Positions 24,511 through 27,245 of a stretch of DNA of 64,000 nt are shown piece after piece. The stretch comes from Escherichia coli (GTDB taxonomy: Bacteria > Pseudomonadota > Gammaproteobacteria > Enterobacterales > Enterobacteriaceae): NCBI RefSeq assembly GCF_050920415.1, contig NZ_CP169309.1. The stretch is one strand, 5' to 3'. Position numbers and translations under genes: made by a program. Numbering within the stretch: position 1 is the stretch's first letter; each line of letters begins with the position of its first letter. The notes beneath the pieces are model-generated. The model was not told the DNA's origin. It saw only the letters and a list, made by a program, of their open reading frames with translations, and ran no database searches.

Positions 24511-24543
24511 AATAAAAAAGCCGCCAGGTTTGACCCCGGCGGC
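24511..24543 (-). terminator. Rho-independent terminator of ahpCF (minus strand)
   Basis: On minus strand gccgcc-ggggtcaaacct-ggcggc followed by TTTTTTATT. Confidence 0.7.
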
Positions 24544-24573
24544 TAAGCAATTGCAGGTGAATCTTACTTCTTC

Positions 24574-26139
24574 TTATGCTGTTTTGGTGCGAATCAGGTA
24601 GTCAAAAGCACTCAGAGAGGCTTTGGCACCTTCGCCAGTGGCGATGATGATCTGCTTGTACGGAACCGTCGTACAGTCACCCGCTGCGAACACGCCTTTG
24701 ACGTTGGTTTCGCATTTCGCATCAATGATAATCTCGCCCATGCGGTTACGTTCGACTGCGCCTTCGAGCCAGTTGGTGTTCGGCAGCAGACCAATCTGGA
24801 CAAAAATACCGGCCAGTTTGATGTTGTGAATATCGCCGCTGACACGATCGCGATATTCCAGACCAACAACTTTGCTGCCGTCGCCTTTCACTTCCGTGGT
24901 TTGCGCATTCAGAATAATGTCGACGTTTTTCAGGCTGCGCAGTTTGTCCTGCAGAACCTGGTCGGCTTTCATTTCTGGCGCAAATTCCAGCAGAGTTACG
25001 TGTTCAACGATACCCGCCAGGTCGATTGCCGCTTCCACGCCGGAGTTACCACCGCCGATAACCGCTACGCGTTTGCCTTTAAACAGCGGGCCGTCGCAGT
25101 GCGGGCAGTAGGTCACGCCTTTGGTACGATACTGATCTTCTCCCGGAACATTCATGTTGCGCCATTTTGCACCGGTCGCCACTATAATGCTGCGTGCTTT
25201 CAGTACCGCGCCAGAAGCTGTTTCAATCTGATGCAGGCCACCTTCAACCGCTGCCGGAATCAGTTTGCTGGCGCTCTGGCTGTCGATCACATCAACGTCG
25301 TATTCATCAACATGAACTTTCAGTGCACCTGCCAGTTTTTGGCCTTCGGTCTTCGGTACAGAAATGTAGTTTTCGATATCAACGGTATCGAGGATCTGAC
25401 CACCAAAACGTTCACCCATCAAACCGGTACGGATGCCTTTACGTGCGGAGTAAATTGCTGCCGCTGCACCCGCCGGGCCGGAACCAACGATTAATACGTC
25501 ATAAGCATCACGCTTGTTCAGCTCTTCTGCCGCACGTTTTTCCGCGCCAGTATCAATTTTGGCGACGATTTCGGAAATAGTCATGCGGCCCTGACCAAAC
25601 TCTTTCCCGTTTACGAACACTGCCGGAACGCCCATCACGTTGCGATCGGTGATTTCGTTCTGGAAGGTGCCGCCGTCAATTGCCGTATGCTTGATGCGCG
25701 GGTTCAGTACGCTCATCAGGTTCAGCGCCTGCACCACGTCCGGGCAGTTATGGCAAGAGAGCGAGTAATAGGTTTCGAATTCAAAATCACCGTCAATATG
25801 GCGAATCTGCTCCAGCAAAGACTGCGCTTCTTTTGACGGATGACCACCGGTCCACAACAACGCCAGTACCAGCGAGGTGAACTCGTGGCCCATCGGGGAA
25901 CCTGCAAAACGTGGCCCCTGGTTGGAACCTGGGTTAGTGATCAGGAAAGACGGCTTACGCACCGGCAAGCTGTTATCTTCTTTAAAGGTGACTTTGTCTG
26001 ACAGTTCTGCGATTTCAGCCAACAGTTCCTTGATTTCTGCCGATTTAGCGCTGTCATCCAGCGTGGCAATTAACTCAACAGGCTTGGTCAATTTCTCAAG
26101 GTAAGCCTTGAGTTGAGTTTTCATATTTGTGTCGAGCAT
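24574..26139 (-). CDS. ahpF: Alkyl hydroperoxide reductase subunit F (flavoprotein disulfide reductase)
   Basis: 521-aa ORF starting [11 protein letters not shown]; two CxxC redox motifs (CHNC, CPHCDG) and FAD/NAD Rossmann motifs. Confidence 0.95.
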
Positions 26140-26309
26140 GTTTATCTCCTGGGCTTTAAACATCATCATGCAAGCGGCCTCTGCGGCTACCTGGATGCAG
26201 CTTGCATCATGGTGCGGGGAAGAAAATCGGGTGCCGCAGCACCCGATTAATTAGGTGAATTTCCGAACTATTTCGCGCCGGAGTTGGTAGCGCGAAAGAC
26301 AAAGGAAAT

Positions 26310-26873
26310 TTAGATTTTACCAACCAGGTCCAGAGACGGAGCCAGAGTTGCTTCACCTTCTTTCCATTTAGCCGGGCAAACTTCACCTGGGTGAGAAGCT
26401 ACGTACTGTGCTGCTTTGATTTTACGCAGCAGGTCAGACGCGTCACGGCCAATGCCTTCAGCGGTAACTTCGATTGCCTGGATGATACCCTGCGGGTCAA
26501 CAACGAAGGTTGCACGGTCAGCCAGACCTTCATCTTCACGCATGTTGTCGAAGTTACGGGTCAGGGCGCCAGTCGGGTCGCCGATCATCGCATATTTGAT
26601 TTTAGCGATAGTTTCAGAGCTGCTGTGCCATGCTTTGTGGGTGAAGTGAGTATCGGTAGATACTGCGTATACATCTACGCCCAGTTTCTGCAGTTCTTCG
26701 TAGTGGTCAGCAACGTCACCCAGTTCGGTCGGGCATACGAAAGTAAAGTCAGCCGGGTAGAAGAAGAAGACGCTCCAGCGGCCTTCGGTATCTTTTTCGG
26801 TGATTTCGATGAATTCGCCGTTTTTGAATGCCTGGTTTTTAAAAGGTTTAATTTTGGTGTTAATCAAGGACAT
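26310..26873 (-). CDS. ahpC: Alkyl hydroperoxide reductase subunit C (2-Cys peroxiredoxin)
   Basis: 187-aa ORF with peroxidatic Cys motif FTFVCPTEL and resolving Cys (EVCP). Confidence 0.96.
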
Positions 26874-27245
26874 CTATACTTCCTCCGTGTTTTCGATGAG
26901 ATGTAAGGTAACCAATTTTTGCCGATTCGGCTAATGCGTTTCCATTATCAAATCGATAAGTTTTACCTTACAACCGTCGTAAGACAACTTTGTGAACTTT
27001 GCACCGCCAGTGGCGATAAAAAGTAAAATGGGCCCCCTTTCCAGGTGACCGTGTAATCTGAACTACCCTTTGGTATCTTCAGCGCCTGCCTGCAGGCTGT
27101 GGTGTTGCCCTTACAAATGCAACAACGACATGGATTACAACACCCTCATAAACAAAGGGCAATCACCTGATCTAAGCTCTTACCTATGACAGTGATAGGT
27201 TATGCCTTTTACTCCATTTTTGCACTGACTGAAAAGGACAAATTA

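Follow-up and report, generated by a model that had tools for sequence, protein, structure and literature searches.

The ahpC-ahpF locus and the limits of its spacer

The window, i.e. the whole stretch of Escherichia coli DNA that was analysed (64,000 nt), carries ahpC and ahpF on its minus strand, and beyond ahpC lie dsbG and a LysR-type gene, the same as in E. coli K-12. The ahpC coding sequence (26310-26873, (-)) encodes 187 amino acids and ends with the stop codon TAA at 26310-26312, on the basis of the open reading frame and the ahpC annotation in a 100% identical RefSeq genome. The ahpF coding sequence (24574-26139, (-)) encodes 521 amino acids plus stop, with the start codon ATG at 26137-26139 in the RefSeq annotation of the identical genome, and residues 1-521 of AhpF showed 99% identity to Escherichia loci. 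The N-terminus of RefSeq AhpF reads MLDTNMK, starting from the ATG at 26139, and is preceded in the sequence by the Shine-Dalgarno motif AGGAGA (26145-26150, (-)), the GGAG/GGGA core of which was conserved in alignment A2.

With the RefSeq ahpF start, the spacer between the two genes comprises positions 26140-26309, in total 170 nt. The original prediction had described a spacer of 140 nt beginning at 26170, which was too short because the longest ORF had been taken, opening at the in-frame upstream ATG codons ATGATGATG. Of 80 related species, only 11 had an in-frame upstream ATG open to ahpF. A short upstream ORF or N-terminal extension of AhpF from ATGATGATG, which is in frame in the window, was consequently rejected, as the number of T residues after ATGATGATG varies between species and the frame is not kept. 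The motif AUGAUGAUG is situated inside the 3' arm of the RNase III hairpin (26161-26169, (-); columns 112-125 of alignment A2; see below). In E. coli AUGAUGAUG is in frame with ahpF and generates a misleading 531-aa ORF, and UUUUAA comes after it in most of the remaining genera, resulting in a 4-codon ORF (MMMF or MMTF). Since the frame is not conserved, the AUGAUGAUG ORF is probably not translated.

A 241-nt query over the spacer gave matches in 5422 of the 5426 complete E. coli genomes, including one match at 100%. The consensus promoter scan predicted no sigma-70-like site on the sense strand of the spacer, and an internal promoter for ahpF is thereby unsupported.

Folding of the spacer RNA into three hairpins

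The whole spacer, folded as sense RNA, reached -61.2 kcal/mol in comparison to -44.1 +/- 4.0 kcal/mol in 200 shuffled sequences (z = -4.27), none of which folded as well. The fold consists of three separate hairpins, which from ahpC towards ahpF are the hairpin of an ERIC remnant (-16.6 kcal/mol when folded singly, z = -3.33), a GC-rich terminator hairpin (-18.3 kcal/mol, z = -6.36), and a long imperfect RNase III hairpin (-21.0 kcal/mol, z = -2.35).

The presence of several inverted repeats had been predicted from the sequence, and this was confirmed: both repeats that had been cited are found at their places, within a spacer structured beyond chance. On the plus strand, atgcaagc (26169-26176) pairs with gcttgcat (26201-26208), and the pairing extends to 21-nt arms at 26161-26181 and 26194-26214. 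The repeat gggtgc-cgca-gcaccc is included in a perfect 10-nt inverted repeat (26225-26234 with 26239-26248). A third inverted repeat (26258-26278 with 26290-26310) had not been named in the original prediction.

A probable intrinsic terminator between ahpC and ahpF

The middle hairpin, AAUCGGGUGC-UGCG-GCACCCGAUU (26225-26248, (-)), begins 62 nt past the ahpC stop codon and is composed of a perfect 10-bp stem with a 7-bp GC-rich core (26239-26245 with 26228-26234) and a 4-nt loop. It is adjoined by the U-tract UUUUCUU (26220-26226, (-)), so that both the GC-rich stem-loop and the adjoining U-rich tract of an intrinsic terminator are present. The hairpin had previously been considered to lack a strong T-run, which is true of the plus strand only: on the transcribed minus strand TTTTCTT (26226-26220) directly adjoins it.

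Curated Term-seq data for strain MG1655 place RNA 3' ends at 639668 (+) in two conditions and at 639670 in a third, with the flanking sequence ...TTCGGGTGCTGCGGCACCCGATTT|TCTTCCCCGC given for the end (Adams et al. 2021, eLife, PMC7815308, supplementary file 1). Through the identical K-12 sequence these ends map to window positions 26224 and 26222, 3 to 5 nt into the U-tract; the in vivo evidence is thus from the literature and from another strain with identical sequence at this site, and in Term-seq ends alone true termination and 3' trimming to a stable hairpin after RNase III cleavage look alike. The published table of Rho termination regions lists no coordinate at 6395xx-6398xx (Adams et al. 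2021, supplementary file 2).

A simple consensus terminator scan did not flag this hairpin; the negative result was discounted, because the stem runs through A-U pairs into the T-run and leaves fewer than five T in the scanned tail. The hairpin together with its U-tract is most probably an intrinsic terminator, and we infer that the 3' ends originate from termination and not from trimming. The interruption of the U-tract (UUUUCUU) would fit with incomplete termination.

The RNase III processing site

The third hairpin (26164-26211, (-)) is 48 nt long and contains 17 base pairs broken by mismatches and small internal loops, which corresponds to about two helical turns. Its basal stems are CAU/AUG and AUGCAAGC/GCUUGCAU, with a G-G mismatch between them, and the apical part is weaker and interrupted. 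From the TCGGGTGC stem up to the start codon of ahpF, the window does not differ from K-12.

A cleavage site at 639695, designated 'Intergenic (ahpC-ahpF)' in NC_000913.3 coordinates, has been verified with purified RNase III and 5' RACE (Gordon, Cameron and Pfleger 2017, mBio, PMC5371410). When mapped through K-12, this position is the C of GCUGCAUCC, i.e. window position 26197 in the 5' arm of the hairpin. RNase III-dependent cleavage both in vivo and in vitro is accordingly known from the literature for the identical K-12 sequence; the second cut of a staggered cleavage on both arms was inferred by the same authors (open triangles, Fig. 4 legend; PMC5371410). Thus, the repeat atgcaagc...gcttgcat, which the original prediction had assigned to termination or attenuation, is instead an RNase III processing site (Gordon et al. 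2017, PMC5371410).

The half-life of ahpC mRNA was ca. 14 min in the wild type and ca. 6 min in the rnc deletion strain, with unchanged stability of ahpF, and the authors proposed that after the cut a stabilising hairpin remains on the 3' side of ahpC (PMC5371410). In an rnc14 mutant, ahpF mRNA was 7.7-fold and ahpC mRNA 3.3-fold up, and ahpF was already handled as a confirmed RNase III target in that study (Kim et al. 2013, PMC4222554). The two studies conflict in direction, as ahpC was stabilised by cleavage and ahpF unaffected in the former (Gordon 2017), whereas both mRNAs were higher in rnc14 in the latter (Kim 2013).

All experimental data, on 3' ends as well as on cleavage, are from K-12, which has a full ERIC element upstream of the terminator, whereas the window has a deleted form. 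The terminator 3' ends and the RNase III site are already known in E. coli K-12, and in this respect the window adds no new biology.

Conservation across Enterobacteriaceae

The ahpF loci of 80 Enterobacteriaceae species were compared, including Escherichia, Salmonella, Citrobacter, Klebsiella, Enterobacter, Kluyvera, Kosakonia and Raoultella; together with the window and the K-12 and short alleles of E. coli, 83 spacers were analysed. The GC-rich hairpin was present in 80 of 80 loci at a near-constant distance to the ahpF ATG (mostly 84-88 nt), and the 83 spacers contained 71 distinct terminator hairpin sequences. Compensatory double changes were detected in five of the seven core pairs, with 98.8% of the cells of the 80-species alignment paired; for example, C-G was replaced by U-A in 26 sequences at one core pair and in 24-25 at another. 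When the partners were slid by 1 to 3 columns, pairing of the whole tested structure fell to 29-42%. At least five T within the 8 nt after the core stem were found in 76 of the 80 species, usually in the form of TTTCATTC or TTTTATTC.

These observations bear on a different explanation, according to which the GC-rich hairpin is only a 3' stabiliser: all polymerases would read through, RNase III would cut, and exonucleases would trim the ahpC half back to the hairpin. Such a role agrees with the stabilising hairpin proposed by Gordon et al. and with the shorter ahpC half-life in the rnc deletion strain (PMC5371410), as well as with the imperfect U-tract and with the failure of the consensus scan to find the site. 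However, a mere exonuclease block or stabiliser needs no T-run, and the T-run is kept beside a stem that covaries freely and drifts in sequence, which argues for a terminator; likewise, the 3' ends lie as far into the U-tract as at intrinsic terminators. A purely stabilising function was on these grounds considered rather unlikely, and the intrinsic terminator is preferred.

The RNase III hairpin formed in 71 of the 72 distinct sequences, with a mean of -20.3 kcal/mol, the exception being Salmonella diarizonae (L031). Its basal arms CCAUGAUGCAAG and GCUUGCAUGAUGAUG had column identities of 97% and 99.5%, respectively, among the 80 species (alignment A2 columns 64-74 and 106-116; window 26161-26214, (-)). 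In the flanking genes, the first and second codon positions reach the same level (96-99%), and the third positions stay far below it (76-81%). A double change was observed in only one of the 14 tested pairs, whereas the neighbouring terminator stem covaries freely. Owing to this near-invariance, the comparison neither proves nor disproves the pairing of the RNase III hairpin, and it shows a strong constraint on the sequence itself.

Near-invariance of the arms exceeds what RNase III recognition is generally thought to require. Judged from the alignment, it is one loose end that is not obviously explained by RNase III recognition alone. A sequence-specific partner of the hairpin, either a protein or a small RNA, which might control ahpF translation or cleavage, is conceivable and we regard it as a long shot; such a partner would represent an uncharacterised layer of AhpF control.

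Conservation of both the terminator and the RNase III hairpin across Enterobacteriaceae, in the case of the terminator with covariation, is a modest addition of this analysis to the K-12 data.

The ERIC remnant and the spacer alleles of E. coli

The first hairpin corresponds to a 51-nt remnant of an ERIC (IRU) element (26259-26309, (-)), which adjoins the ahpC stop. In alignment with the 125-nt element of K-12, the ends ATTTCC...GGAAAT are kept and the central 74 nt are absent, so that the first ca. 22 and the last ca. 19 nt of the element are retained. The outer stem of the remnant is formed by 26304-26309 with 26259-26264, and the inner stem UUUCGCGCU/GGCGCGAAA by 26289-26297 with 26271-26279.

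ERIC or IRU elements are miniature inverted-repeat transposable elements (MITE) of ca. 127 bp in Enterobacteriaceae (Sharples and Lloyd 1990, Hulton et al. 1991, summarised in PMC3184786), which are often co-transcribed at the 3' ends of genes and have reported effects on mRNA decay in Yersinia (PMC3184786). The K-12 allele carries its 125-nt element (L001:910-1034) right after the stop codon, with the inverted ends ATTTCC...GGAAAT and a core matching the ERIC-PCR primers at 20/22 and 21/22 positions. These two primer sequences, which occur together in 233 papers of the literature searched, are presumably the standard ERIC-PCR primers ERIC1R and ERIC2. Assignment of the K-12 insertion to the 'box C' repeats was ruled out by the same primer-matching core. 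The K-12 element is dispersed: its median number of detectable places per E. coli genome is 8, the maximum 15. In the window, the best match to the ERIC primer sites was 13/22, which equals background, and with 51 nt the element falls short of the ca. 127 bp of the family due to the 74-nt internal deletion in reference to K-12. A literature search for a link between ERIC and ahpC returned nothing relevant.

Three spacer alleles were distinguished in E. coli: 244 nt with a full ERIC (K-12), 170 nt with the deleted ERIC (window), and 128 nt with no ERIC (L003). Estimated by identity bands, ca. 1760 E. coli genomes have the full copy and ca. 1100 the ERIC-free 128-nt spacer, the rest being window-like. 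When the upstream repeats of the 80 species loci were classified by alignment to the K-12 ERIC, a full ERIC was located at the site in 37-38 of them (the higher figure includes the divergent L062, with 93 aligned columns), REP-like palindromes instead in ca. 30, and neither in ca. 6. Independent internal ERIC deletions with other boundaries were observed in L011, L054 and L066, and the 377-nt spacer of the Phytobacter locus L013 contains two tandem ERIC copies. The site is hence a hot spot for ERIC or REP insertions, polymorphic within E. coli, which is a modest addition of this analysis. The sequence upstream of the terminator is replaceable, and the ERIC remnant is most likely a passenger without a required role.

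It remains to be considered whether all of the inverted repeats are debris of mobile repeats (REP, ERIC) and irrelevant to ahpCF expression. In favour of this, an ERIC remnant makes up the first third of the spacer, where E. coli is polymorphic, and REP-like palindromes occupy its place in other species. Nevertheless, the hairpins of the terminator and of the RNase III site are single-copy, with a median of 1 genomic place, both recur across the 80 species whatever lies upstream, and experimental 3' ends and cleavage sites fall on them. No REP-like units were identified in the spacer of the window, and the 241-nt spacer query likewise matched a median of 1 place per genome, which gives no indication of REP or BIME membership. 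Debris as the sole content of the spacer is therefore improbable.

The least probable explanation, and one to which we give hardly any weight, is a regulated attenuator or riboswitch-like switch tuning read-through to a peroxide or redox signal: the spacer has several hairpins and an alternative pairing, I3, which joins the 5' half of the terminator to a stretch on the apical 3' side of the hairpin that follows (16 nt, 75% complementarity), but I3 lies downstream of the terminator and would come too late for the termination decision, both hairpins persist in the minimum-free-energy fold, the terminator stem varies between species without a conserved upstream partner, no Rfam family was found in the spacer even at E <= 10 beyond chance-level matches, and the upstream sequence is interchangeable (ERIC, REP-like, or nothing), with neither an anti-terminator nor a ligand domain recognised in it. 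Attenuation via I3 was rejected on the same basis.

RNA features in the neighbourhood

The only notable Rfam hit fell outside the spacer, in the dsbG-ahpC intergenic region (27018-27112, (-)), which resembles the enterobacterial sRNA STnc70 but scores below threshold (36 bits, gathering score 40, E = 2.9e-5). For MG1655, an 'orphan' Term-seq 3' end has been reported at 638796 (+), where 149 nt separate it from the ahpC ATG downstream (Adams et al. 2021, PMC7815308), and corresponds to about window position 27022. A short transcript upstream of ahpC thus seems to end near 27022.

Downstream of ahpF, a strong terminator-like hairpin is located at 24544-24519 (region ca. 24519-24573, (-)), with 10 pairs, of which 8 are G-C, followed by TTTTTATT. 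In E. coli, the 3' UTR of ahpF has been reported as a candidate source of a small RNA associated with Hfq (Iosub et al. 2020, PMC7213987; cited in PMC10703908). A literature search for small RNAs from the ahpC-ahpF spacer returned only this ahpF 3' UTR candidate, which is a different region.

A proposed composite intercistronic control region

We consider it probable that the spacer forms a composite control region between the two cistrons, by which ahpC mRNA is made in excess over ahpF mRNA within one OxyR-driven operon. Transcripts initiated at the ahpC promoter would first cross the 51-nt ERIC remnant, after which a fraction of the polymerases would stop at the 10-bp GC-rich hairpin and UUUUCUU, releasing a monocistronic ahpC mRNA with a protective 3' hairpin. 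Polymerases reading through would produce the second, imperfect hairpin of ca. 48 nt, a short way ahead of the ribosome-binding site of ahpF. RNase III would then cut this hairpin and part the two halves of the message; the ahpC half could be shortened as far as the terminator hairpin and would be stabilised, and the fates of the two cistrons would be uncoupled. In this way one promoter would yield more message for ahpC than for ahpF.

From these elements we infer that only a fraction of transcription is terminated and that the AhpC:AhpF ratio is set in this way. The original prediction had likewise proposed partial termination or attenuation setting this ratio, and it largely holds as regards a leaky terminator, in line with the Term-seq 3' ends and the conserved, covarying hairpin with its T-run; attenuation in the sense of a regulated switch is not retained, there being no Rfam family and no upstream alternative structure in the spacer.

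Comparison with known systems

The K-12 allele shares with the ERIC family the inverted ends, the primer-matching core, the multi-copy occurrence, and the intergenic, co-transcribed position. The window copy has kept both ends and lost the central 74 nt including both primer segments, and is therefore a remnant and not a full member of the family.

With the ahpC-ahpF site of Gordon et al. 2017 (PMC5371410), the window has in common the same locus and a K-12-identical hairpin, which is long and imperfect with about two helical turns and the cleavage of which alters ahpC mRNA stability. Differences between K-12 and the window are confined to positions further upstream, i.e. the deleted ERIC and AAT for CTT just ahead of the terminator stem.

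The cell needs unequal amounts of AhpC and AhpF, and the spacer would be a clear example of how this may be arranged, by a leaky terminator and then an RNase III cut. As in other intra-operon intrinsic terminators setting gene ratios, a GC-rich hairpin and U-rich tract separate a strongly expressed upstream gene from a downstream partner with lower expression, RNA 3' ends map to the U-tract in vivo, and the stem covaries across species. The ahpC-ahpF spacer differs from these in that its U-tract is interrupted, and in that an RNase III site is nearby and coupled to the terminator.
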